Assembly (NCBI GenBank): GCA_029242945.1
Contig: JAQWSZ010000012.1
Location: forward strand, 943 to 64,942
DNA length: 64,000 nucleotides
Reading direction: 5' to 3'
From: Gammaproteobacteria bacterium
GTDB taxonomy: Bacteria; Pseudomonadota; Gammaproteobacteria; Steroidobacterales; UBA11654
Of the stretch, positions 3,265 to 35,086 are shown piece after piece. A program made the position numbers and the translations under genes. The notes below the pieces were generated by a model. The model saw nothing but the letters and a program-made list of their open reading frames with translations, had not been told where the DNA came from and searched no databases. Position 1 is the first letter of the stretch. Every line of letters begins with the position of its first letter.

Positions 3265-3539
3265 TTTAAATAACTCATCCTCTAGTTAACAACCAAAACC
3301 TCCTAAAAATGTTCGACCACTAGATATATATACCCTGTTTGAAATGTGCACCTGCCCTGCCCAACTGAATAAAACTTATTAAAAACAAAAGAAGAGCCTT
3401 GCGGAGATGGAAAAATTGACTAAGGAATAAACAATGCGTATCTTCATTTGGTGTAGCATAGGTGTAGCAAATTAGTATTTATGATTTACTATTATTTTGT
3501 CTAATCCATATATGTCAATATCTATATGGCTTTCAGCTG

Positions 3540-3612
3540 TGCCGGGAAGAAGAATTGAACTTCTGACCTTCTGATTACGAATCAGTTGCTCTACCAACTG
3601 AGCTATCCCGGC
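3540..3612 (-). tRNA. tRNA-Thr (anticodon CGU)
   Basis: The reverse complement reads GCCGGGATAGCTCAGTTGGTAGAGCAACTGATTCGTAATCAGAAGGTCAGAAGTTCAATTCTTCTTCCCGGCA. It has a 7-bp acceptor stem (GCCGGGA/TCCCGGC), a D stem (GCTC/GAGC), anticodon loop TTCGTAA (CGT), a T arm (AGAAG-TTCAATT-CTTCT) and discriminator A. CCA is not encoded. Confidence 0.92.
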
Positions 3613-22656: not shown

Positions 22657-23280
22657 ATGATTGATTTAAAGACAAAAACTGCATTGTGGGTTCTACCTAT
22701 TCACTTGTACGCTTTCTTGATCCCGGTAGCTCTAATACCAACACTTAATCATCATGAATTATTTCTTCAAGAGATAATTTTCAGTCATAAAATACTAGTT
22801 TATGCCATGTTCATTCTTGCCTTGGGTAGTTTATTTGAAATCATTCAAAATCATAAAGACCATTGGTTCATAACTGCTGATAAAGCTAGTGGCAATGGTT
22901 TTAGTCTTTATGATGGTTTATTTACGTTCTTTATCCTCTTTGGTCAGGTAATGATCTTGATAAGCTTTATAGGGCAATACAAATGGATCATTGTAATATC
23001 CTTATTGTCTTTATCTCTCGGCCCAATTCTTTACTACAAAAGAAAACTTATTTTCTTACCAACGAGTATTATTGGCTTTCTAAACACAATAGTTGCATTT
23101 CTGCTATTTTCTGAACCAGTGATATTTATGCAATTGGTTATGGTTGGATTAACAATTGTCTTCTTCAATAAATTGATTGCAACTAATAATCAATACTTTC
23201 ATGGATTAACCACTTTGTGTGCATCTTCAGGAATAGTATTTTTAGTCATTGCAATCAAAAAAGCAGCTCTTATCTCATAA
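22657..23280 (+). CDS. polytopic membrane protein (hypothetical)
   Basis: About 6 hydrophobic helices and no recognised family. Its stop is 1 nt before the ATG of the next gene. Confidence 0.5.
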   Translation: MIDLKTKTALWVLPIHLYAFLIPVALIPTLNHHELFLQEIIFSHKILVYAMFILALGSLFEIIQNHKDHWFITADKASGNGFSLYDGLFTFFILFGQVMILISFIGQYKWIIVISLLSLSLGPILYYKRKLIFLPTSIIGFLNTIVAFLLFSEPVIFMQLVMVGLTIVFFNKLIATNNQYFHGLTTLCASSGIVFLVIAIKKAALIS

Positions 23281-23281
23281 T

Positions 23282-24475
23282 ATGAATCGCCGACATTTTT
23301 CAAAAATTCTTGCTAGTCTAGCCCTTTCCGGAACATCAAATATTGATTCTACAATCCTGAAAGAAAAAATCACGATCATCGGTGGCGGTATTTTAGGTTT
23401 ATCTATTGGTTATCAACTTTCAAAGGCTGGTGCTGAGGTCACTTTAATTGAAAAGGATTTTCTAGGTTCTCATGCAAGCGGTAGTTCATTTTCATGGATA
23501 AATGCTTCCTATGACAAAACACCACTCAGCTATAACACTCTTGCACAGTTAGGTATAAGAGCGTACCACCAATTACAAAAAGAACTGAATCTGGATATTA
23601 AATGGGGTGGCTCATTAGAATGGTTTAAATCAGAAAAAAATTCTAAGCGATTAATAAATAATGTAAGACTGCTTCAAAGCTATCAAGATCCGTTGGCAAT
23701 TCAGATCATAAACCATGATCAAGCTTCAGAATTAGAACATTTTGCTAACTTTCAACACTCTCAAACGATAGCGTATTCAATTCATGAAGGTGCTATGAAT
23801 ACAGTATCAACAATCAAAAAATTCTCGGAAGGAATAAAGAATAATGGAGGTAAGATCATATTTCCCGCTGAATTTAAAGAACTTGTATATAAGGGCAATA
23901 CTCTCAATTCAATAAAAACATCAGTTGGGGAAATAAAAACAAATCAAGTTATTTTTGCATGTGGTACTAATACTGATAATATTCTAAATTCAAAAATGAT
24001 GAGACCTTCCACTCCTGGAATTATTCTTAGAACTAAGCCCATAAAACCAATAATCAATAGAGTTATTGTTGCTCCAGGTATTCATATTCATCAACAAAAT
24101 AATGGCCGATTAATCATTGGTGAGCAAAGAGGTCCGGGCATACAACATGATGAAAGACTTATAAAAAAACCGAAAAAATTCCCTAATCGTGATTTTGAAA
24201 AAATGCATCAAAATCGCATATTAACAATTGCTAAAGAAATTATTCCAGAATTAAATAATTTAGAAGTAGAAAAAACAACAATAGGTTGGAGACCTTTGCC
24301 TAAAGACGGAAAACCTATAGTAGGTCCTATACAAAAATTACCTGGGGTGTATCTAACAGTAATGCATAGTGGAATCTCTCTGGCTGGTATTATGGGTCAA
24401 CTAGTAAAAGAAGAGATTCTAGAAGCAAGAACTAATAAATTATTGGAAGATTTTAGACCTTCAAGATTTACTTGA
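23282..24475 (+). CDS. FAD-dependent oxidoreductase (DAO / D-amino-acid dehydrogenase-like) with a twin-arginine signal
   Basis: Start moved to the ATG at 23282, giving MNRRHFSKILASLALSGTS (a Tat-type RRxFxK motif). FAD dinucleotide fold ITIIGGGILGLSIGYQLSKAGAEVTLIEKD. Confidence 0.78.
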   Translation: MNRRHFSKILASLALSGTSNIDSTILKEKITIIGGGILGLSIGYQLSKAGAEVTLIEKDFLGSHASGSSFSWINASYDKTPLSYNTLAQLGIRAYHQLQKELNLDIKWGGSLEWFKSEKNSKRLINNVRLLQSYQDPLAIQIINHDQASELEHFANFQHSQTIAYSIHEGAMNTVSTIKKFSEGIKNNGGKIIFPAEFKELVYKGNTLNSIKTSVGEIKTNQVIFACGTNTDNILNSKMMRPSTPGIILRTKPIKPIINRVIVAPGIHIHQQNNGRLIIGEQRGPGIQHDERLIKKPKKFPNRDFEKMHQNRILTIAKEIIPELNNLEVEKTTIGWRPLPKDGKPIVGPIQKLPGVYLTVMHSGISLAGIMGQLVKEEILEARTNKLLEDFRPSRFT

Positions 24476-24511
24476 TATATAGGATGATTGCTTTATGATT
24501 CTGAGTTGAAA

Positions 24512-24664
24512 ATGAATGAGGATCTAAAATATTTAAAAATCTTTGTTGGTCTTGCTTTTATTCCATTTTTTATATTGATCTTATTTAATGCTTGGGCTTT
24601 CTTTTCAGCACTATTTTTTCCTGAATTTAATCCTGTAGCAGTTATCTGCGGACCTAGAGTGTAA
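24512..24664 (+). CDS. possible 50-aa membrane peptide upstream of the copper chaperone genes
   Basis: ATG at 24512 to TAA at 24662-24664 translates to MNEDLKYLKIFVGLAFIPFFILILFNAWAFFSALFFPEFNPVAVICGPRV, with one or two TM helices. It ends 2 nt before the PCuAC ATG. Below the track size cutoff. Confidence 0.25.
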   Translation: MNEDLKYLKIFVGLAFIPFFILILFNAWAFFSALFFPEFNPVAVICGPRV

Positions 24665-24666
24665 TA

Positions 24667-25101
24667 ATGAAATTACTCAAGTATACCGTTATAACATTAG
24701 TTTTTATATCCGATATCTCACTTGCGAATTTGTCCTTAGAAAACTCTTGGGTTAGAGCTGCACCAATGAACTCAACAAAAATGTCGGCTTATGGCTTATT
24801 GAAAAATAATACAATGAGCTCCTTTAATCTAATTAGAATTGAAGCCTCAGGATTCAAGAATACACAAATACATCAAAGTCAGATCAATAAAGAAATAATG
24901 TCTATGAAAGAGTTAAAAAATTTTACAATAGAAGCCAATAGTGAAATTGAACTTACACCAGGAGGTAAGCATATAATGCTTCAATTTCCGATGAAAATTT
25001 TTAAAATTGGTGACTCCGTAGAGCTGCTACTATTCTTTGAATCCAGTTATGAAGAAAAAGTAATTCGGGTTAATGCGCCTATAAAAAGAGAAGCGCCATA
25101 G
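24667..25101 (+). CDS. periplasmic copper chaperone PCu(A)C (DUF461 family)
   Basis: Signal peptide, then NSWVRAAPMNSTKMSAYGLLKNN and TPGGKHIML motifs (the H/M copper ligand pattern of the family). Adjacent to SCO1. Confidence 0.78.
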   Translation: MKLLKYTVITLVFISDISLANLSLENSWVRAAPMNSTKMSAYGLLKNNTMSSFNLIRIEASGFKNTQIHQSQINKEIMSMKELKNFTIEANSEIELTPGGKHIMLQFPMKIFKIGDSVELLLFFESSYEEKVIRVNAPIKREAP

Positions 25102-25151
25102 ATAAAAAAAATATAATTTTCATAGGATGCCTGCTATTAATACTATCTCTA

Positions 25152-25715
25152 ATGGCAGTATTTTTAAAACTATCCCCTGTTCTGATAGATAAAAAACCTG
25201 AACTAATTACTGGAAAGTTTTTAAGTCAACCACTACCTATAAAACCCTTTAGTCTAATTAATCAGTATCAAGAAGATTTCAATAAAGAAGATCTACAAAA
25301 TAAGTGGTCAATACTTTTCTTTGGCTATACTAATTGTCCAGATGTTTGTCCGACAACTATCTATAAACTCTCAGAGATCCAAAAAAAAATAGCACAAAAA
25401 AAAGAACTAAATGATCAATTACAAGTAATATTAATCACACTTGATCCAAAAAGAGATAGTGTCACTAGATTAAGAGAATACTTGGCTTTTTTTGGACCTT
25501 CTTTGATTGGCCTCACAGGTAATGATTCAGAAATAAGCAAAATAACTTCAAATCTAAGCGTTTATTTTGAACAAGTTGGCAAAGGAGATCAGTATGATTT
25601 TAATCACACAGCTTCTATATTCTTAATTGGGCCAGAAGGAACTGTAATAGCTTCTTTTAGTCCTGCATCACAATCTCAAGAGTTAAGTCAGGATATTCTA
25701 AATATTATTCAATAA
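25152..25715 (+). CDS. SCO1/SenC family copper chaperone (thioredoxin fold)
   Basis: FGYTNCPDVCPTT CxxxC copper site, conserved downstream His (FNHTASIFLIGPEG). The true start probably lies upstream at a non-canonical codon (see findings). Confidence 0.85.
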   Translation: MAVFLKLSPVLIDKKPELITGKFLSQPLPIKPFSLINQYQEDFNKEDLQNKWSILFFGYTNCPDVCPTTIYKLSEIQKKIAQKKELNDQLQVILITLDPKRDSVTRLREYLAFFGPSLIGLTGNDSEISKITSNLSVYFEQVGKGDQYDFNHTASIFLIGPEGTVIASFSPASQSQELSQDILNIIQ

Positions 25716-25727
25716 TTAATGTAGATA

Positions 25728-26084
25728 CTACTTTAGCTTTACAGCTGTTCCTGATGCCACAAGAAAAAGCATACCCTTTCCTTTACCGGAAAACTCTTGA
25801 TAATCCAGATCCACAGCAATTACAGCATCTGCTCCTAATTCAATAGCTGCTATTTTTAATTCTCTTAAGCATGTTGTCCTGGCATCTTTCAATACTTTTT
25901 GGCTAGCACTACTTCTACCTCCAAAGATATCTCTAATTCCAGCAAACAAGTCTCTGAATATATTCATGCCGAAAACACATTCAGCTGTAATAATTTCTAG
26001 CTCAGCTTCTATTTCATGATTGGCAACACTAGGGGCAGTAGTTAAGATTAAATCATCAATCTCTTGATCTGTGATCTCTGTCAT
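25728..26084 (-). CDS. YbjQ (UPF0145) family putative heavy-metal-binding protein
   Basis: Length 118 aa. GADAVIAVDLDYQEF...MLFLVASGTAVKL is typical of YbjQ_1/DUF74 proteins. Confidence 0.75.
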   Translation of the reverse strand: MTEITDQEIDDLILTTAPSVANHEIEAELEIITAECVFGMNIFRDLFAGIRDIFGGRSSASQKVLKDARTTCLRELKIAAIELGADAVIAVDLDYQEFSGKGKGMLFLVASGTAVKLK

Positions 26085-26194
26085 ATTAAATCCTTATAAA
26101 AGTCTTATCCCTTAATTTTGAAAGATTTTAGTAATAATTTTTTTTCATCCTTTAGATTTCAGTGGCAAATGTAGATGTTTATCAGTTGCTCCAA

Positions 26195-27160
26195 CTAATT
26201 CAACATACTCGGGTCCATGCCCATACTTTTCATTTGATCTAGAACTACTGTTTTTGTAATTGCATTAATTCCATTATCTCTTGCATAATCTTCGACATTG
26301 TTAATAGCCATTTCAATAATTCCTGGAGGAGTTTGTGCAATCATCTCTTTGGATTCTGTGTCCCAGTCCATGCTAAGCTTCATATCAAAGCTATCTTTAG
26401 AAATATTATCAAAAGTTTGAGCCTCTTTTGCTTTTTTAGCTCGCTTTCTTTTATCCCAATATTCTGATTCCTCAGGTTTTGTAGCCTCAAGTACAGCTCT
26501 CGCATCTGGTGTGGTAGTCATAATATTGAATAAACTATCAAGGTATTTGCTAGGCACGACAACGAACATCTCTTCTGGTTTGAGACGATTATTCATTCTA
26601 CCACCTAGGTCACCAGGAGTAATCACTACATTTCCATCATGCCAAGGCGATGCAAAAAGATCACTACAAAAAGAAGATCCACAAGAGCCTCTAGGAGGAG
26701 TTCCATCAATCACTGTCCGAGCACCTCCAATAAAGTTAGCCCAGTGAGGAGTGCAAACTACTACAATCCAATCAACATGAATACCATCAGGCACTTCAGA
26801 GAGAGGGGCTGCTCCAATACCCACAACGGTATTTTGTGGTAAAACATATTCACCTGATTTAATTTTTTCAGCACCTACATCTGTAAAGGCTGGTATGTTT
26901 TTGGCCAAATACTGCCCATTTCTAATCTCATCAGTACCCTCATGAACGCCAGCAGTATATACACCTGTAGTACAATCATGGTGATGTTTATCAAAAGAGA
27001 CAACTTCCCCTTTATCCATTGCATGACGAACAATTGAGCATGGAACTACTTTTTTTTGTTGATAAGCTTCTGGTATCTCTTTTTCAAATAAACTAATTGC
27101 AACTGGATTACCTCTAACTTTTCCAGTCAATGTTTCATTAAGCTCTTTAAAATCTATCAT
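26195..27160 (-). CDS. DUF169-family protein fused to a protochlorophyllide-reductase-C-terminal-like (PCP_red-type) domain
   Basis: The N-terminal ~220 aa has the COG2043/DUF169-like pattern (VVPCSIVRHAMDKGEVVSF...HDCTTGVYTAGVHEG). The C-terminus (MDWDTESKEMIAQTPPGIIEMAINNVEDYARDNGINAITKTVV) fits the W-T-x-E-A...IP.FVR....E.fAR..G...IT pattern of the ChlB/BchB C-terminal domain. Confidence 0.6.
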   Translation of the reverse strand: MIDFKELNETLTGKVRGNPVAISLFEKEIPEAYQQKKVVPCSIVRHAMDKGEVVSFDKHHHDCTTGVYTAGVHEGTDEIRNGQYLAKNIPAFTDVGAEKIKSGEYVLPQNTVVGIGAAPLSEVPDGIHVDWIVVVCTPHWANFIGGARTVIDGTPPRGSCGSSFCSDLFASPWHDGNVVITPGDLGGRMNNRLKPEEMFVVVPSKYLDSLFNIMTTTPDARAVLEATKPEESEYWDKRKRAKKAKEAQTFDNISKDSFDMKLSMDWDTESKEMIAQTPPGIIEMAINNVEDYARDNGINAITKTVVLDQMKSMGMDPSMLN

Positions 27161-27271
27161 AATATTTTTATCAGTAATTTAAGGTCGAGTAAATACATAC
27201 TATTTTTATAAATACCATGTAAATATAAATTAGCATTATTACTTCAAAGATAAAACAGTTAGAATCTCTAT

Positions 27272-28147
27272 ATGAATTTTTGGAAGCAAAAAAAAGAAGA
27301 AAAATGGGTTGAAAGCCCGATGCATGATAATTGGTATCAATCCAGCTCTTATTTTCTAAGTTCTTTTGCTTTAATCACAACGGTTGATGAAAATGGAGTC
27401 ACTAGCATTGGACCTTATCAATTATCATTTCCATTTGGAGTCATACAAAGAAGAGAATGGATTGTTATTTCGAGAAGAGGCAGTAATACTTCAAAAAATA
27501 TCAAAAGAATTAAAAAATGTGCAATGAATTTCGTGGAATACGATAAAAAGCAAACTAAAAATATTGTTGACTTGGGTTATCCAGGACAAGATCCAGAAGA
27601 AAAAATGAAGGATTGTGTTTTTGAACTTGAAAATTCACCCACTGAAAATTATGTCAATGATCCAGAGAGACCTAAAATTATTAAATCTGCTTTCCAAGTC
27701 TTTGAATGTGAATTAAATGATAACCCTGAAGATTTTTACTACAAAGGAACTGATTCAACTGAATATATGTTGCTTAAAATAAATAAAATTCACCTTAAAG
27801 AAAAGTGGAGAAATAACCTTGATCTTGGCGATGATATGCAAATTCCAAATATGCCAATTAGCTTTGGGTTTAGAAATGCTAATCAGTTTTGGTTTGCTAA
27901 ACATAAGAAACCTTTTTGGCTCCCTACTCCTGAAGGCAAAGGAGCTGAGCATGAAGCGGTAATGTATATAGCAAACAGAATGGATGAAAACATTGTCTTC
28001 ACAGCAAATGCTTGTAAACAGTTATCTGGAATTCCAAAAGTTTTTGTTAAAAAAGCACTCAAAGGAATTATTGGTGAGGCAAAAAAACAAGGTGTTAGCA
28101 AAATAGATGAAGCATTTGTTAAAACCATTAATGAAAAAAGAGGTTAA
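27272..28147 (+). CDS. flavin-reductase-like (split-barrel) protein fused to a PCP_red-type C-terminal domain
   Basis: Flavin_Reduct-like core (SSFALITTVDENGVTSIGPYQLSFPFG ... IIKSAFQVFECEL). The C-terminus (VFTANACKQLSGIPKVFVKKALKGIIGEAKKQGVSKIDEAFV) shows the same helical-domain pattern as the divergent neighbour. Confidence 0.55.
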   Translation: MNFWKQKKEEKWVESPMHDNWYQSSSYFLSSFALITTVDENGVTSIGPYQLSFPFGVIQRREWIVISRRGSNTSKNIKRIKKCAMNFVEYDKKQTKNIVDLGYPGQDPEEKMKDCVFELENSPTENYVNDPERPKIIKSAFQVFECELNDNPEDFYYKGTDSTEYMLLKINKIHLKEKWRNNLDLGDDMQIPNMPISFGFRNANQFWFAKHKKPFWLPTPEGKGAEHEAVMYIANRMDENIVFTANACKQLSGIPKVFVKKALKGIIGEAKKQGVSKIDEAFVKTINEKRG

Positions 28148-28155
28148 ATAAAAAA

Positions 28156-28740
28156 ATGACACACAGAACTGAAGAATTAAAAAAACTATCAGGTATACCT
28201 CACCTAATTAGAGAATTGAGATATCATGAATTTTCGAGGCAAAGTATCGGTATTATTTTGGTAAGTCTATTTGGCTTCACCACTGATTCAAATACACATA
28301 TAGCATTCCAGTCTCAACTGGCACAAATGATAATTATTCTAGGGCTTATTATTAGAATGTATGCATCAGGATTTGTCCTAAAAAATAAAGAACTCTCAAC
28401 TACAGGACCTTATGCCTATGTTAGACATCCTTTATACACAGGTAATATTCTAGTTTTATGTGGTATGGCTATCATCAATGGTCAAATTTGGGCTGGCCTG
28501 ATTGCCTTATCATTTTTCTGTTTTTACTACCCTGCTGCCATTGAATATGAAGATAGAAAATTAAAAGCATTATTTCCTGAAACATGGGAAAAGTGGGCTA
28601 ATAAAACCCCAGCACTAACTATAACATTCAAAAAAATTCATTCGTTAGAACTTGAGAATTGGTCTTGGAAAAAAAGTTTAATCCATAATTATGAGCCTGT
28701 AATTTTTATTTATGTATTGATTTGGCTAATAATACTCTGA
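28156..28740 (+). CDS. membrane methyltransferase of the isoprenylcysteine carboxyl / phospholipid methyltransferase (ICMT/PEMT) family
   Basis: Four to five TM helices and the family motif TTGPYAYVRHPLYTGNILVLCG. Confidence 0.7.
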   Translation: MTHRTEELKKLSGIPHLIRELRYHEFSRQSIGIILVSLFGFTTDSNTHIAFQSQLAQMIIILGLIIRMYASGFVLKNKELSTTGPYAYVRHPLYTGNILVLCGMAIINGQIWAGLIALSFFCFYYPAAIEYEDRKLKALFPETWEKWANKTPALTITFKKIHSLELENWSWKKSLIHNYEPVIFIYVLIWLIIL

Positions 28741-28765
28741 GTATTCTTCTTATAAGTTTTTCAAA

Positions 28766-29440
28766 ATGAAATCTGAGAAAAATATCGTTGACTCAGTTAA
28801 TAAAGCACTGCGTTCTGATCATAACGCTACTTTCATGCAAATGGGTTATCAAGGAATCTTATATAAAGTCAATATTGATGGGCTCAACTTAATTGTCAAA
28901 AAGGCAAATAAGTCATCATTTTTTACAGGCCGCCTTAACCAAAATAGTCTACATCATGAATACAAAATATATAAACAATTAAGAGGTTTGAAAGGTATAC
29001 CAAAATGCTATGGATTGACTGAGAAGGGGGACCTGATCTTAGAACTCATCAATGGGCAGACTTATCGTGAATCTCAATATGAACTAGAAGGCAATGATGA
29101 ATTTTTTAATCAACTATTGGCTTTAATTCAAGCCATGCATAGCTTAGGGGTGAGTCATGGTGATTTGAAAAGAAAAGATAATATTTTTGTTGATGAAGAT
29201 AAAAGGCCTTACCTTATAGATTTTGGAACAGCTATCTCCAATAAAAATATCAGTTGGGGAAATAAAATACTCTTCGCATTTATAAAAAAAACAGACTTAA
29301 ATGCATGGATAAAACATAAATACCGAAGAGACTATCAAAGCATTAATAGTAAAGACCTGAAATATTATTCACCCACTGTAGTTGAAGATATTTATAGATC
29401 TGCGAGAATACTTTGGTATAAAATTTTTAGAAATAATTAA
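28766..29440 (+). CDS. minimal protein-kinase-fold protein (RIO / Kdo-WaaP lipopolysaccharide-kinase-like)
   Basis: Catalytic loop VSHGDLKRKDNIFV and metal-binding LIDFGTA. VAIK-like LIVKKA lysine. Only 224 aa. Confidence 0.65.
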   Translation: MKSEKNIVDSVNKALRSDHNATFMQMGYQGILYKVNIDGLNLIVKKANKSSFFTGRLNQNSLHHEYKIYKQLRGLKGIPKCYGLTEKGDLILELINGQTYRESQYELEGNDEFFNQLLALIQAMHSLGVSHGDLKRKDNIFVDEDKRPYLIDFGTAISNKNISWGNKILFAFIKKTDLNAWIKHKYRRDYQSINSKDLKYYSPTVVEDIYRSARILWYKIFRNN

Positions 29441-29452
29441 TTAAAAAGAGAA

Positions 29453-29650
29453 ATGTTTGAAACACCTTTAATTTATTACTGGATCATCCCACTGATTACT
29501 TGGTCTGCTTTATGGAAAATAGCGGCTTTATGGAAAGCTGCTAGAAATAGACAATTAGCCTGGTTTATTGCTCTAGCTATCATCAATAGTGCAGGTATGC
29601 TTCCTATCTTATATATTTATTTTTATCAAAAAAATCAAAATCAAAAATAA
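29453..29650 (+). CDS. small two-helix membrane protein (DUF5652-like)
   Basis: Length 65 aa. The WSALWKIAALWKAARNRQLAWFIALAIINSAGMLPILYIYF pattern recalls DUF5652 proteins. Confidence 0.45.
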   Translation: MFETPLIYYWIIPLITWSALWKIAALWKAARNRQLAWFIALAIINSAGMLPILYIYFYQKNQNQK

Positions 29651-29657
29651 AAAACTC

Positions 29658-29685
29658 TTGACTTAATACTCAATTGATTCAATAT
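29658..29685 (+). promoter_or_regulatory. candidate promoter of the metY leader
   Basis: TTGACT (29658-29663), a 16-nt spacer, then CAATAT (29680-29685). The predicted start falls just before the structured leader. Confidence 0.3.
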
Positions 29686-29687
29686 AC

Positions 29688-29745
29688 GCACTGCACCGAT
29701 TTATTCCAACTTGCAGGTGCTTTATAAATACTGCTAAAGAGGATT
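29688..29745 (+). promoter_or_regulatory. structured 5' leader of metY; candidate SAM-II/SAM-V-like pseudoknot riboswitch (unverified)
   Basis: Hairpin GCACC (29693-29697) / GGUGC (29716-29720) with loop GAUUUAUUCCAACUUGCA. The loop segment AUUUAU (29699-29704) is complementary to the 3' tail AUAAAU (29724-29729), giving an H-type pseudoknot topology. The tail ends in GCUAAAGAGGA. The location upstream of metY is typical for SAM-II/V elements in marine bacteria. Confidence 0.33.
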
Positions 29746-29817
29746 ATGGTCTTAGATCTAAACCTGTTTAGTAATTTACTAACAGGTTTTTTTTATGATA
29801 GAGGACTTAAAAAATGA
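29746..29817 (+). CDS. possible 23-codon leader ORF overlapping the terminator hairpin and coupled (ATGA) to metY
   Basis: ATG at 29746 to TGA at 29815-29817 translates to MVLDLNLFSNLLTGFFYDRGLKK. The stop overlaps the metY ATG (29814). AAGAGGA lies only 2 nt upstream, which is suboptimal spacing, so the call is weak. Confidence 0.2.
   Translation: MVLDLNLFSNLLTGFFYDRGLKK
29761..29794 (+). terminator. intrinsic-terminator-like hairpin plus U-tract in the metY leader
   Basis: AACCTGTTTAGTAA / TTACTAACAGGTT form about 11 bp with one bulged T. This is followed by a T run (29889 not included; T at 29787-29794 partly in the stem). It sits 20 nt upstream of the metY ATG, consistent with an expression platform. 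Confidence 0.5.
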
Positions 29818-31088
29818 AAATTGAAACAAAAGCCATTCATTCCGGCTATACACCGGATCCAACAACCAAATCGGTAGCAACACCAATTTACCAAACCACG
29901 TCTTATGCCTTTGATAGTGCTCAACATGGAGCTGATTTATTCTCCTTAGCTGAGGAAGGCAATATTTATAGCAGAATTATGAACCCAACTAATGCTGTTC
30001 TTGAAGAAAGATTAGCTCAAATGGAAGGAGGAATTGCTTCGTTAGCAGTTTCTTCTGGAATGTCTGCCATAACTTATGCCGTTCAATGTTTAACTTCGAC
30101 AGGCCAAAACATAGTATCTGTCAGTGAATTATATGGTGGAACAAGTGATTACTTCTCAAATACGCTAAAAAATCAAGGTATAGAGGTTCGGTATGCCAAT
30201 CATGATGATATCGACGGCTTATCTAATTTGGTTGATGAAAATACTACATTAATATTTTGTGAATCAATTGGAAACCCTTTAGGTAATATTTGTGACATTG
30301 AGTCATTAGCAAAAGCAGCTCACTCCAAAGGTGTGCCCTTGGTAGTGGATAACACTGTCGCTACGCCATATCTTTTAAGGCCTATTGATTATGGAGCTGA
30401 TATTGTTGTCCATTCACTAACAAAATACATTAGTGGACATGGAACTACGATTGGCGGTGCCATAATTGACGGGGGTAATTTTGATTGGTCTAAAGAGCCA
30501 AAACGTTTTCCAACCTTAAATGAACCAGATAATTCATACCATGGACTAATTTATTCAGAAGCACTAGGTGCTGCAGCATTTATAGGAAGATGCAGAGTTG
30601 GTCCTTTGAGAAATACAGGAGCAGCATTATCACCCTTTAATGCATTCTTGATTCTACAGGGGATTCAGTCATTGCACGTTAGAATGGACAGGCATTGTGA
30701 AAACACAATCAATGTTGCTAACTATTTATCAACACATAGCCAAGTCAAATGGGTCAATTACGCTGGACTGGAAAATAGTCCTTACTTTGATTTAGCAAAA
30801 AAATATACTGATGGCTCACCTTCTGGTATTTTAACTTTTGGTATTGAGGGTGGAAAAGAAGCAGGCATTAAGTTTATTGATTCTCTTGAGCTAATTGTTC
30901 GCTTGGTCAATATTGGTGATACTAAATCACTAGCCACACACCCAGCTTCGACCACACACAGTCAATTAGAACCTGAGGAATATGAAGCCGCTGGTATTTC
31001 AGATGACATGATAAGAATATCCATTGGAATCGAAAATGTGGATGATATTATTGGTGACATTGAGCAAGCATTAAGTAAATCAGTATAG
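29814..31088 (+). CDS. metY: O-acetylhomoserine aminocarboxypropyltransferase / sulfhydrylase
   Basis: Cys/Met-metabolism PLP enzyme with the PLP-lysine motif HSLTKYISGHGTTIGG. The 424-aa MetY-type N-terminus is MKIETKAIHSGYTPDPTTKSVATPIYQTTSY. Confidence 0.92.
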   Translation: MKIETKAIHSGYTPDPTTKSVATPIYQTTSYAFDSAQHGADLFSLAEEGNIYSRIMNPTNAVLEERLAQMEGGIASLAVSSGMSAITYAVQCLTSTGQNIVSVSELYGGTSDYFSNTLKNQGIEVRYANHDDIDGLSNLVDENTTLIFCESIGNPLGNICDIESLAKAAHSKGVPLVVDNTVATPYLLRPIDYGADIVVHSLTKYISGHGTTIGGAIIDGGNFDWSKEPKRFPTLNEPDNSYHGLIYSEALGAAAFIGRCRVGPLRNTGAALSPFNAFLILQGIQSLHVRMDRHCENTINVANYLSTHSQVKWVNYAGLENSPYFDLAKKYTDGSPSGILTFGIEGGKEAGIKFIDSLELIVRLVNIGDTKSLATHPASTTHSQLEPEEYEAAGISDDMIRISIGIENVDDIIGDIEQALSKSV

Positions 31089-32328: not shown

Positions 32329-34941
32329 CTATTTTAAAATCTCTAAAACTTTCTCCATAATAGAATCAGTACTGATACCAAAATAATCTCTCAGTTCTTC
32401 TCTTCCTTCACTTAATCCATAACCGTCTGTGCCTAAAGATGTAAAAGAACCAGGAAAAAGATGTGCCAAGCTATCAGGTAATAAACTAATAAAATCGCTA
32501 ACAGCGATAAAATGTCCTGTTTGATCATTTAAAATGTTTTCTAGATATGATTTTTCTTTGGATTTCTTTGATTCTAAGAAATCCTTGTGTAATAGGTTAT
32601 AGCTTGTCACACTCCAAACATTTACTGGTATCCCTTGTCTCTCTAATTTTTCCTGAGCTTCAAGAACTTGTTGCATTATGCTACCACTGCCCAATAGATG
32701 GATCGGCTCACCTGTGTGTTTTTTCTCTAATTCTGTGGAAGCACTTTTGAATAGATACATACCTTTGAGAATACCCTCATCACAATCATGGGGCATCTTG
32801 GGATGACTATAATTCTCATTATAAACTGTTAAATAATAAAAAATATTTTCTTGTTCCTCATACATTCTTCTTATTCCCTCTCTAACAATCGTTGCCAATT
32901 CATAAGAAAATGCAGGATCGTAAGTCATTAGATTGGGCACCACTGAAGCTAAGACATGAGAATGGCCATCTTGATGTTGGACACCTTCACCATTCAAGGT
33001 TGTCCTACCAGCTGTTCCTCCAATCAAAAAACCTCGAGTTAGAGCATCACCACATGCCCATATCATATCTCCCACTCTCTGGAAACCAAAAATAGAATAA
33101 AAAATATAGAATGGAATCATGGGTAATTCATGATGTGAATATGCTGTTCCAGCGGCCATAAATGATGCCATGGCTCCAGCCTCACATATTCCCTCCTGAA
33201 GAATTTGTCCATCTGTGGCCTCTTTATAAGGAGAGATGGTTCCTGCGTCCACAGGTTGATAGTTTTGACCATCATGTGAATAGATTCCTGCTTGAGAAAA
33301 TAAACCATCCATCCCGAAAGTTCTAGCTTCATCAGGAATAATAGGCACCACATACTTACCAATACTCTTATCTCTGAGTAATTTAGAAATAATCCTTACT
33401 AAGACCATTGTAGTGGAAATCGAACGGTCTATTTCATTGAAAAAATCTTCAAAAAATTCGGGTGTTGGTGCAGTAATTTTTTCACAATCATCAAAACGAA
33501 TCGGTTGATAGCCTCCCAAATCATCTCTTCTTTCTTTAAGGTATATCATTTCTTCTGAAGCAGGATCAGGGATATAGAATTTAGCAGCTTTTCTGTCTTC
33601 ATCTGAAAGAGGAATATTCAATCTCTCTGCGATTTCAATTCTCTCTTCATCACTCATTGTTTTCTTCTGATGAGCAATATTTCTTCCCTCTGATCCCTCG
33701 CCTAAACCATACCCTTTAAGTGTCTTTACTAAAATTACAGTAGGTTTTCCATTTGGCTTTGAAGCTTTATCAAATGCTGCATATAACTTCTTACGATCAA
33801 AACCTCCTCGCTTGATATCTTTGAGCTCTTTATCATTCAACTGAGTCATAATCGATTCTAATTCTGGATTTCCCTCAATCCAATGATTACGCTGATCTTC
33901 GCCTGATGAAACGGAATACATCTGATACTCACCGTCAACCACTTCATCCATTCTTTTTTGCATGACATCATTGTGATCTATTGAGAATAATGGATCCCAC
34001 TCTGAACCCCATATAACTTTAATCACATTCCATTGAGAACCTCTAAAAATAGCCTCTAATTCTTGGATAATTTTACCATTCCCTCTCACAGGCCCATCAA
34101 GTCGCTGCAAATTACAATTGACAACAAAAACCAAATTATCTAATTGTTCTCGAGAAGCAATATTAATAGTGCCTAATGTTTCAGGCTCATCCATCTCACC
34201 ATCGCCTAAAAATGCCCATATTTTTCCTATTTTTTTATTGGTTAACCCTCTGTTTTCTAGATATCTTGCAAATCTTGCATAATAGATAGAAGACACGCCA
34301 TTTAAGCCCATTGAAGCGGTTGGGCTTGGCCATAATTCTGGTCTTCTTCTAGGATGAGGATAAGATGGTAAACCACCTTCTGGTTGTAATTCTCTCCTGA
34401 AATTCTTTAATTCTTCTTCTGATAAACGACCCTCTAAAAAAGCTCTTGAATAAATACCAGGAGACGCATGGGCCTGAATATTCATCATATCACCTTGATA
34501 AGCATCCGTTCTTGATTTAATAAAATGATTGAGGGCAACTTCAGTCATTGTGGCAGTTGATGCATAGGTTGCAATATGACCACCTACGCCTTTACCACTA
34601 TCATAGCCTTGCAAAACCATTGCCATCGCATTCCAACGAATAATATTTTCTATTTTTTGCTCAAGCTCAATATTACCTGGATATGCTGGTTGATCAGAGA
34701 CAGGTATGGTATTTCGATAAGGAGTATTGAGTGTTGCACCGCCTAGTGAAACTCCCTGACTAAGAGCATATTGTTGCAATGAAGCTAATAAATCTTTAAC
34801 TTGCCTATTACCATAACTCTCTTTAATTGCTTGGAGAGATTCTGTCCACTCATTTAGTTCGATAGCCCATTCTTTCTCGAATTTTTCATTCTCTAAGGAG
34901 TCTATACCGTCAACTTTAGATGTTTTACTTTCTTTACTCAT
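32329..34941 (-). CDS. aceE: pyruvate dehydrogenase E1 component (homodimeric AceE type)
   Basis: About 870 aa with the AceE-type N-terminus (MSKESKTSKVDGIDSLENEKFEKEWAIELNEW) and the ThDP motif GDGEMDEPE. Start moved from the track start 35016 to the ATG at 34941, because the upstream 25 codons are AT-rich junk translation. Confidence 0.94.
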   Translation of the reverse strand: MSKESKTSKVDGIDSLENEKFEKEWAIELNEWTESLQAIKESYGNRQVKDLLASLQQYALSQGVSLGGATLNTPYRNTIPVSDQPAYPGNIELEQKIENIIRWNAMAMVLQGYDSGKGVGGHIATYASTATMTEVALNHFIKSRTDAYQGDMMNIQAHASPGIYSRAFLEGRLSEEELKNFRRELQPEGGLPSYPHPRRRPELWPSPTASMGLNGVSSIYYARFARYLENRGLTNKKIGKIWAFLGDGEMDEPETLGTINIASREQLDNLVFVVNCNLQRLDGPVRGNGKIIQELEAIFRGSQWNVIKVIWGSEWDPLFSIDHNDVMQKRMDEVVDGEYQMYSVSSGEDQRNHWIEGNPELESIMTQLNDKELKDIKRGGFDRKKLYAAFDKASKPNGKPTVILVKTLKGYGLGEGSEGRNIAHQKKTMSDEERIEIAERLNIPLSDEDRKAAKFYIPDPASEEMIYLKERRDDLGGYQPIRFDDCEKITAPTPEFFEDFFNEIDRSISTTMVLVRIISKLLRDKSIGKYVVPIIPDEARTFGMDGLFSQAGIYSHDGQNYQPVDAGTISPYKEATDGQILQEGICEAGAMASFMAAGTAYSHHELPMIPFYIFYSIFGFQRVGDMIWACGDALTRGFLIGGTAGRTTLNGEGVQHQDGHSHVLASVVPNLMTYDPAFSYELATIVREGIRRMYEEQENIFYYLTVYNENYSHPKMPHDCDEGILKGMYLFKSASTELEKKHTGEPIHLLGSGSIMQQVLEAQEKLERQGIPVNVWSVTSYNLLHKDFLESKKSKEKSYLENILNDQTGHFIAVSDFISLLPDSLAHLFPGSFTSLGTDGYGLSEGREELRDYFGISTDSIMEKVLEILK

Positions 34942-35086
34942 ATATTTATTATCGCTAAAAAATTGAAAACAAGAAGTATAAATCAATAATTTTATGTGAC
35001 TACTGTACCATGACAATTATAATTATTATGAATAAATGAGATAATAAAAGCATTAATATCATGAGCAACATTAATAACTAAAAAAG

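Follow-up and report, generated by a model that had tools for sequence, protein, structure and literature searches.

PCP_red-type C-terminal domains of two subtypes on a divergent DUF169/flavin-reductase-like gene pair in marine Gammaproteobacteria

The PCP_red domain (PF08369) forms the C-terminus of BchB/ChlB, subunit B of dark-operative protochlorophyllide oxidoreductase (DPOR); its fold is also represented by stand-alone structures (2KRU, and 2L09 of asr4154). In DPOR the C-terminal helix of BchB covers the protochlorophyllide cavity (PMC4071322). Our literature searches returned nothing on PCP_red/PF08369 outside DPOR, on the function of DUF169 or on DUF5652. To our knowledge PCP_red has so far been regarded as peculiar to BchB, an enzyme of chlorophyll synthesis. 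Here we describe two neighbouring genes, each encoding a C-terminal domain of this type on a different redox-type scaffold, in a 64,000-nucleotide stretch of a gammaproteobacterial genome (GTDB lineage Steroidobacterales; UBA11654; assembly GCA_029242945.1, contig JAQWSZ010000012.1, positions 943 to 64,942 of the forward strand; hereafter the window). One product carries an N-terminal DUF169 domain (PF02596, COG2043); the N-terminal domain of the other, which we call FR-like, has a predicted fold matching the flavin reductase/flavoredoxin/NbaA family (PF01613; 1EJE, 4Z85, 3BNK, 3BPK). Profile and model comparisons identify both tails as homologues of the BchB/ChlB C-terminal domain.

The two genes are transcribed divergently from an AT-rich intergenic region of 111 nt (27161-27271), and theirs are the only PCP_red-like open reading frames (ORFs) in the window. 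On the minus strand, the DUF169 gene (26195-27160; ORF list and Pfam) encodes 321 amino acids (aa), comprising DUF169 (~aa 14-209), a linker, the PCP_red tail (~aa 264-312, encoded by 26225-26371, minus strand; Pfam stretch 266-306) and a terminal GMDPSML. On the plus strand, the FR-like gene (27272-28147, 291 aa) encodes a split-barrel flavin-reductase-like domain followed by a divergent PCP_red tail (~aa 241-291, encoded by 27992-28144, plus strand, as delimited by hhalign aligned columns and predicted helices).

The DUF169 domain scores 83.7 bits against a Pfam gathering threshold (GA) of 27, over model positions 7-205 of 209, which places it in the family. Its tail matches PCP_red at E 2.6e-5 and 24.6 bits over positions 1-41 of 45, below the GA of 32.5; P0243, a relative of 45% identity, passes that threshold with 36.3 bits, and PF08369 is present in precomputed annotation of close homologues. 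When 16 such tails were aligned and compared with bona fide PCP_red repeats, hhalign returned a probability of 98.7% (P 4e-16), and a hidden Markov model (HMM) of this tail type (type A, below) matches residues 268-326 of the stop-to-stop ORF. The AlphaFold2 (AF2) model has a mean predicted local distance difference test score (pLDDT) of 93.7, and its best PDB match in Foldseek is 2KRU, the nuclear magnetic resonance structure of PCP_red (root-mean-square deviation [rmsd] 0.9 A over 51 columns, template modelling score [TM] 0.77 on the target), with stand-alone asr4154 (2L09) and, lower down, ChlB (2YNM_D, rmsd 1.2 A) among further matches to the tail. With a profile match over nearly the full model length and the same fold, the tail can be assigned to PCP_red. 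After 2KRU and 2L09, the tail (~264-320) best resembles the small helical lid domains of the RuvB/RuvBL AAA+ ATPases (rmsd ~2 A over ~58 columns, probability ~1.0, E 0.04-0.4), a modelled resemblance that may or may not reflect shared ancestry.

For the DUF169 domain itself, Foldseek gave no PDB structural match at E<=0.001, and literature searches on DUF169 yielded nothing functional. Comparison with relatives of as little as ~20% identity shows C41 and C63 to be invariant and C165 nearly so, making these residues candidate metal-binding, Fe-S or redox-active positions. The DUF169-PCP_red subfamily is small, with 113 clusters at E<=1e-3, many of them fragments, among 1.84 billion representatives searched. 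Some members (P0244, P0246) bear an additional C-terminal SRPBCC (Polyketide_cyc2) domain, and at L090:3577-5562 a DUF169-PCP_red gene is followed by a MarR gene and then a separate SRPBCC gene; this is a fusion-plus-adjacency signal in its own right, unrelated to FR-like. At L087:1053-2984 a DUF169-PCP_red gene precedes a second, tail-less DUF169 gene and a gene for a 62-aa 2x[4Fe-4S] ferredoxin, an arrangement which hints at a role of DUF169 proteins in electron transfer.

The FR-like protein required more sensitive comparison at both ends. Its N-terminal domain is matched in Foldseek by NbaA, flavoredoxins and flavin mononucleotide (FMN)-binding split-barrel proteins (E 9e-11 to 1e-7, TM up to 0.76), as well as by NTA-monooxygenase component B, ThdF, CobR and others, and so belongs to the split-barrel fold; by sequence the window protein misses the Pfam cut-off (PNPOx_N 16.4 bits against 28.1), and weak matches occur among its homologues (PNPOx_N in 28 and Flavin_Reduct in 25 of 31). 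The family comprises 487 clusters at E<=1e-3, is conserved end to end over ~290 aa with invariant motifs GPYQL, GYPGQ and GFR..FWF and invariant cysteines C83 and C146, and is widespread in non-phototrophs, reaching anaerobes and archaea. Databases label it generically, as 'RutF' or 'hypothetical'.

Direct searches did not reveal the nature of the FR-like tail: Pfam gives no PCP_red match for the window protein, BLASTP of the DUF169 tail against the FR-like tail gives no alignment at E<=100, and a sequence-profile search of the PDB with the FR-like tail alignment returned chance matches only (CENP-X, caspase-3) and did not find BchB. Among 31 homologues, seven show weak PCP_red matches, and one homologue (P0405) is named 'PCP reductase family protein' by NCBI. 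The link is carried by a 336-aa homologue, P0345, which aligns to FR-like residues 32-290, tail included (35% identity, E 7e-53), and in which the region equivalent to the tail matches PCP_red at E 2.2e-7 over positions 1-44 of 45. It is carried also by a profile of 98 FR-like tails, which hhalign aligns to bona fide PCP_red (96.8%, P 2.9e-10) and to the DUF169-type tail (95.2%, P 2.5e-8) in the register first proposed; an initial hhalign comparison using close DUF169 homologues alone gave 13% probability, and significance was reached only once the sequences were diverse. The AF2 model (pLDDT 83) places helices at 245-251, 256-273 and 280-290, the three-helix pattern of PCP_red. At the level of the family profile, the FR-like tail is thus a divergent PCP_red domain, detectable by profile methods only.

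An earlier note on this DNA, made from the sequence alone, had read both C-termini as PCP_red-type and the N-terminal scaffolds as unrelated, DUF169 against a split-barrel flavin-reductase-like fold. Both statements are borne out, the first by Pfam, hhalign, P0243 and P0345 (for the DUF169 tail by Foldseek also) and the second by Pfam and Foldseek; the shared-tail observation is thereby confirmed. The gene map of that note, comprising six ORFs, is reproduced by the ORF list, and the C-terminal strings, HGDLKRKDN and DFG motifs that it quoted are all found in the translations. The Pfam comparison that it proposed places DUF169, PEMT/ICMT, Pkinase/Kdo, DUF5652 and YbjQ_1 above their cut-offs, with PCP_red sub-threshold on the DUF169 protein and unmatched on FR-like. 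Its statement that no component has an assigned role holds for the close homologues too, which bear generic database names and for which literature searches were empty.

Two subtypes can be distinguished among the tails: type A, acidic and canonical, and type B, divergent and near-neutral to basic. Type A is carried by the DUF169 proteins and by a second flavin reductase family, FR2 (below), and type B by every FR-like protein examined. Net charge averages -4.8 +/- 1.7 in type A (n=96); in type B it averages +0.6 +/- 2.0 across the 65-aa envelope, or +2.5 if the count is confined to the 50-aa core. The pair in the window stands at -5 (A) and +7 (B). No conserved Cys or His was found within the domain in the PCP_red alignments. 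The domain can also occur in multiples: P0342 (260 aa) and P0350 (221 aa) are each made up of three PCP_red repeats in tandem (113-128 bits), and in P0342 a rubredoxin-like CxxC...CxxC zinc ribbon lies between repeats; both are on contigs too short for gene context. A clean alternation of A and B in these repeats was considered and rejected, as HMM scores fail to separate the repeats cleanly.

In the reading that we favour, held tentatively and as somewhat short of probable, the PCP_red tails are an assembly or lid module that pairs A with B and thereby unites two soluble redox enzymes. The locus would encode two cytoplasmic redox-type enzymes, an FMN-type split-barrel oxidoreductase (FR-like) and a cysteine-bearing DUF169 protein, each ending in a three-helix PCP_red domain. 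By analogy with the BchB C-terminal helix in DPOR, the tails would serve both in assembly and in capping an active site; in BchNB structures that capping occurs across subunits. A type A tail would pair with a type B tail, joining FR-like to a variable second enzyme (DUF169 here, FR2 elsewhere), and through the pairing of FR-like with DUF169 reducing equivalents or substrate could pass between the two. Such heterotypic tail pairing is plausible, and the complementary charges offer a hint of it.

Support for A/B pairing comes from gene context, which was compared in a one-genome-per-species scan of 80 FR-like loci with 10-kb flanks, using tblastn and ORF clustering. A related class comprises 17 loci with FR-like proteins at least 75% identical to that of the window, and a distant class 65 loci at 46-56% identity. 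DUF169-A stands beside FR-like-B in 17/17 related genomes. When the six-frame ORFs of every locus were searched with a sensitive type A HMM, a type A tail came up within 10 kb of FR-like in 20 of the 65 distant loci, each time on FR2. This protein of ~277 aa matches Flavin_Reduct (up to 69.8 bits) and PCP_red (up to 40 bits) in Pfam, and 1EJE (E 6e-20) and 2KRU (E 1e-5); it and FR-like are collinear paralogues (22% identity, E 9e-9). In L027 FR2 lies directly upstream of FR-like on the same strand; in L044, L050, L051, L052 and L055 the two are immediate neighbours in divergent orientation, as in the window; FR2 is one gene away in Actinobacteria (L035, L037), and several genes away in other loci. 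At least five synteny types are represented, with Actinobacteria included.

The two subtypes also meet outside full-length pairs. At L137:7666-7878 (+) and L143:7666-7878 (+), both on large contigs (548 and 345 kb), a gene 12 nt upstream of FR2-A encodes a type-B domain standing alone as a 70-aa protein. The type B HMM (~1e-14) and PCP_red (E 2.5e-6) both recognise this protein, whose last residues are the FR-like signature ...NKER (...ITKEIVDLVNKERTGG). P0345 (L083:1309-2319) combines an FR-like barrel and its own type B tail with a second PCP_red domain of type A. Co-localisation of A and B thus takes four configurations (FR-like/DUF169-A, FR-like/FR2-A, 70-aa type B/FR2 and one A+B fusion), and, as far as genome comparison shows, type A and type B genes are found near each other far above chance and in several layouts. 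The earlier note had suggested that the shared domain reflects a common partner, heterodimerisation or a common ligand; because A and B co-localise in these four configurations, the common-partner or heterodimerisation part of that idea gains comparative support.

The same comparison supplies the case for an alternative, which is that FR-like and DUF169 are independent enzymes, each tail acting solely inside its own homo-oligomer (it might, as in BchB, form a lid on the active site of the neighbouring subunit), and that adjacency is synteny or a leftover of duplication. We regard this as a serious possibility, if on the doubtful side. Split-barrel flavin reductases form dimers, and those among the Foldseek matches of FR-like resemble homodimeric enzymes. 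Several observations weigh against A/B pairing or for independence, most of them both. In 45 of the 65 distant FR-like loci there is no type A gene within 10 kb, and in a reciprocal scan of 80 FR2-centred metagenome loci FR-like was near FR2 in 7 (3/16 among those flanked by 6 kb or more on each side), or a type-B partner in 9/80 once the two 70-aa cases are added, leaving 71/80 without the other subtype nearby. The A-B gene link is therefore facultative. Five other DUF169-PCP_red lineages (L086-L090) show neither FR-like nor FR2 in their short available flanks, and DUF169 came to lie next to FR-like in a single evolutionary event, within a single lineage. Even there a cytochrome c gene separates the divergent pair in 9/17 related genomes, and the whole DAO-to-AceE neighbourhood is syntenic (below). 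The proximity of the paralogues FR-like and FR2 could be left over from a tandem duplication. Only one 2.4-kb metagenome contig carries the P0345 fusion, and the relatives of P0345 all lack the extra domain. Finally, the charge complementarity of A and B is strong in the regex-defined 50-aa core and weak in full HMM envelopes. Duplication remnants alone, however, poorly explain four A+B layouts that include a detached 70-aa type B protein and a fusion; A/B adjacency survives rearrangements and crosses phyla, and type A is found on the neighbouring partner of FR-like in every case, irrespective of the partner's catalytic domain.

The gene interposed in those nine genomes (L006-L008, L010, L013-L015, L017 and L018; e.g. 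L010:9127-9930, minus strand) lies on the DUF169 strand and is absent from the window. It encodes ~267 aa with a signal peptide, a CSACH motif and a Pfam Cytochrom_C match of 27 bits. Neighbours of DUF169-PCP_red in L086-L090 include a second DUF169 gene with ferredoxin, or MarR with SRPBCC, among others; a 290-aa gene after P0243 and a 313-aa gene before P0245 were considered as FR-like and rejected by BLASTP.

In all seven FR2-centred pairs FR-like lies downstream on the same strand, with a luciferase-like gene between the two in the six that have informative sequence. In one group of Gammaproteobacteria, the operons that hold FR2 and FR-like (L021, L027, L063, L073-L075 and L091-L117; e.g. 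L074:7116-10843) include one or two genes for luciferase-like monooxygenases (LLM, Bac_luciferase), together with an alpha/beta hydrolase and a major facilitator superfamily transporter. An LLM gene is directly downstream of FR2 in 12/69 loci, and tblastn with two LLM queries found none in the 64-kb window. We therefore rejected FR-like as a general reductase of LLM systems, this being a feature of one synteny group.

A further alternative is that both tails bind a common third factor, either a planar or tetrapyrrole-like cofactor or an electron donor such as ferredoxin, so that the two enzymes use the same molecule without contacting each other through their tails. The BchB helix does contact as well as cover protochlorophyllide (PMC4071322), the corrin reductase CobR is among the Foldseek matches of FR-like (ranks 33-40), a ferredoxin gene follows the two DUF169 genes of L087, and PCP_red occurs on several redox scaffolds and in tandem repeats with a rubredoxin-like zinc ribbon. 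Against this, no genes for tetrapyrrole biosynthesis or transport were found in the window or in the ~170 related loci inspected, the PCP_red alignments show no conserved Cys or His that could act as ligands, the family is widespread in non-phototrophs including archaea, and the strong difference between A and B in charge and sequence fits one shared ligand poorly. We consider a common third factor quite improbable, and the tetrapyrrole-like ligand of the earlier note finds no support in any neighbourhood examined or in the domain itself.

If A/B pairing is real, it may extend beyond this locus. PCP_red could be a modular docking domain, acidic A heterodimerising with basic B, from which two-enzyme redox complexes are built on interchangeable scaffolds; we think this broader proposal unlikely as it stands. 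Were it true, the pairs would be FR-like/FR2, FR-like/DUF169 and bare type-B adaptor/FR2, BchB would carry, as its C-terminal domain, a specialised form of an assembly device in general use, and a flavin-dependent reductase would become the first functional partner of the DUF169 family.

The FR-like gene is followed on the plus strand by three further genes. The first encodes a PEMT/ICMT-type membrane methyltransferase (MT; 28156-28740, 194 aa), which belongs to both Pfam families (PEMT 48.3 bits against 25, ICMT 29.6 against 24) and fails the NCBIfam equivalogs for LmtA (52 bits against 325) and isoprenylcysteine methyltransferase (31 against 160). The second encodes a small kinase-fold protein (28766-29440, 224 aa) with HxD...N and DFG motifs (HGDLKRKDN and DFG in the translation), which likewise belongs to its Pfam families (Pkinase 39.2 bits against 31.7, Kdo/WaaP 24.8 against 21.3) and fails the Bud32/RIO/KdkA equivalogs (best 38 bits against 125-490, and 33 against 142). 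The third encodes a 65-aa DUF5652 peptide (29453-29650; PF18893, 80.5 bits against a GA of 23.4) with two hydrophobic helices. Successive spacers along the plus strand, taken from the ORF coordinates, are 8, 25 and 12 nt, which with the divergent 111 nt are the values given in the earlier note. The weak PEMT/ICMT/LmtA and Kdo/WaaP affinities suggest that the three genes may act in envelope or lipid modification. A search of plasmid sequences gave no match to the kinase, and literature searches on the kinase and on DUF5652 produced nothing functional.

In the related lineage the gene order is DAO - PCuAC - SCO1 - [YbjQ] - DUF169 <> FR-like - MT - kinase - DUF5652 - HMT (homocysteine S-methyltransferase) - AceE. 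MT follows FR-like directly, and the order FR-like-MT-kinase-DUF5652 is uninterrupted, in 16/16 related loci of sufficient extent, and the trio is probably co-transcribed with FR-like in this lineage. A short-chain dehydrogenase/reductase gene is inserted after DUF169, between it and YbjQ, in 9/17 related genomes. The YbjQ-family gene itself (25728-26084, minus strand; YbjQ_1 99.5 bits) lies downstream of DUF169 in the window, as the earlier note had it, and is at that position in just 6/17 related loci, which makes it a variable neighbour rather than a conserved part of the unit.

That note had also viewed these genes as a coherent module, and one could propose a single five- or six-gene pathway in which a substrate made or altered by the redox pair is phosphorylated by the kinase and methylated by MT, with DUF5652 as a membrane accessory. 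The contiguity of FR-like, MT, kinase and DUF5652 at short spacers would favour such a pathway, as would the persistence of the order even where the kinase has fallen to 48% identity. Yet the flanking housekeeping genes, from DAO to AceE, are equally syntenic in the same lineage, and outside it the association disappears: MT, kinase, DUF5652 and DUF169 were found by tblastn within 10 kb of FR-like in 0/65 distant loci, MT, kinase and DUF5652 were beside FR2 in 0/80 loci, and the trio was not found near DUF169-PCP_red in the five other lineages. The lack of plasmid relatives and of literature for the kinase does not help the proposal. Since the distant FR-like loci lack MT, kinase, DUF5652 and DUF169, and the other DUF169 lineages lack FR-like, the five-gene set is a feature of one lineage, restricted to 17 related species-level genomes, and not a portable unit. 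Nothing in the gene comparisons shows functional coupling of the trio to the redox pair; most simply, MT, kinase and DUF5652 are lineage-specific operon neighbours, and a single pathway is very improbable, the least likely of the four readings.

The nearest relatives of the window are metagenome-assembled genomes of marine Gammaproteobacteria, several labelled Woeseia or Woeseiaceae, and its GC content is uniform at ~34%. The housekeeping flank upstream consists of co-oriented genes (23249-25715, plus strand) for a DAO-type flavin adenine dinucleotide (FAD) oxidoreductase, a 58-aa ORF, the copper chaperone PCuAC and SCO1/SenC. These make up a cluster for delivering copper to cytochrome oxidase, which is syntenic with the DUF169/FR-like genes across the related lineage. 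Downstream are a MetY-like pyridoxal phosphate enzyme, homocysteine S-methyltransferase and an ORF of ~895 aa (32329-35016, minus strand), which we take from inspection to be pyruvate dehydrogenase E1 (AceE). A consensus promoter and terminator scan of 25500-30000 found fewer sites than in shuffled sequence and is thus uninformative. The sole RNA gene in the window (ARAGORN and Rfam) is a tRNA-Thr (CGT) at 3539-3612 (minus strand).

None of the domain families discussed here is new, and precomputed annotations already show the architectures. What is new is the recognition of the FR-like tail as PCP_red, the distinction of two subtypes, and their recurrent but facultative co-localisation on interchangeable scaffolds; the DUF169/FR-like pair is a real, mildly novel architecture. 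If three unrelated or paralogous redox scaffolds share the tail, and its two subtypes tend to be co-encoded, the tail may be an assembly or lid module, an idea that can be tested with two small domains. It would open experimental access to two large and uncharacterised families that marine Gammaproteobacteria possess in abundance, and might shed light on the contribution of the BchB C-terminus to DPOR. Should the pairing prove false, the comparison still shows which parts of an apparent 'module' are lineage-specific synteny.

Among described systems, the two-component luciferase-like monooxygenases with an HpaC/NtaB-type reductase are resembled by the FR2/FR-like operons of one synteny group; the LLM link holds in a minority of loci, and the window, having no LLM gene, does not encode such a system. 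From the flavin reductases FR-like differs in being ~100 aa longer, with its own invariant motifs, a linker and the PCP_red tail; its use of flavin is predicted from the fold, the window protein lying under the Pfam cut-offs, whereas its paralogue FR2 matches 1EJE by sequence. With BchB/ChlB both window proteins share the small helical fold of the tail and the signature W/F-[TD]-x-[ED]-A...(I/V)P...E.(Y/F)A(R/K)..G...(I/V)(T/D). Scores for the BchB/ChlB equivalogs (TIGR01278, NF002789) are 17-25 bits against 490-509, over the last ~70-90 model positions only, and the window proteins are not members of those families: they lack the nitrogenase-like domains, and the hosts of the tail are instead DUF169 and a flavin-reductase-like barrel in a non-photosynthetic context. 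Lastly, most DUF169 proteins are ~220-270 aa long and tail-less, whereas the window protein, a clear member of the family over its N-terminal 210 aa with the family cysteines kept, carries a PCP_red tail.

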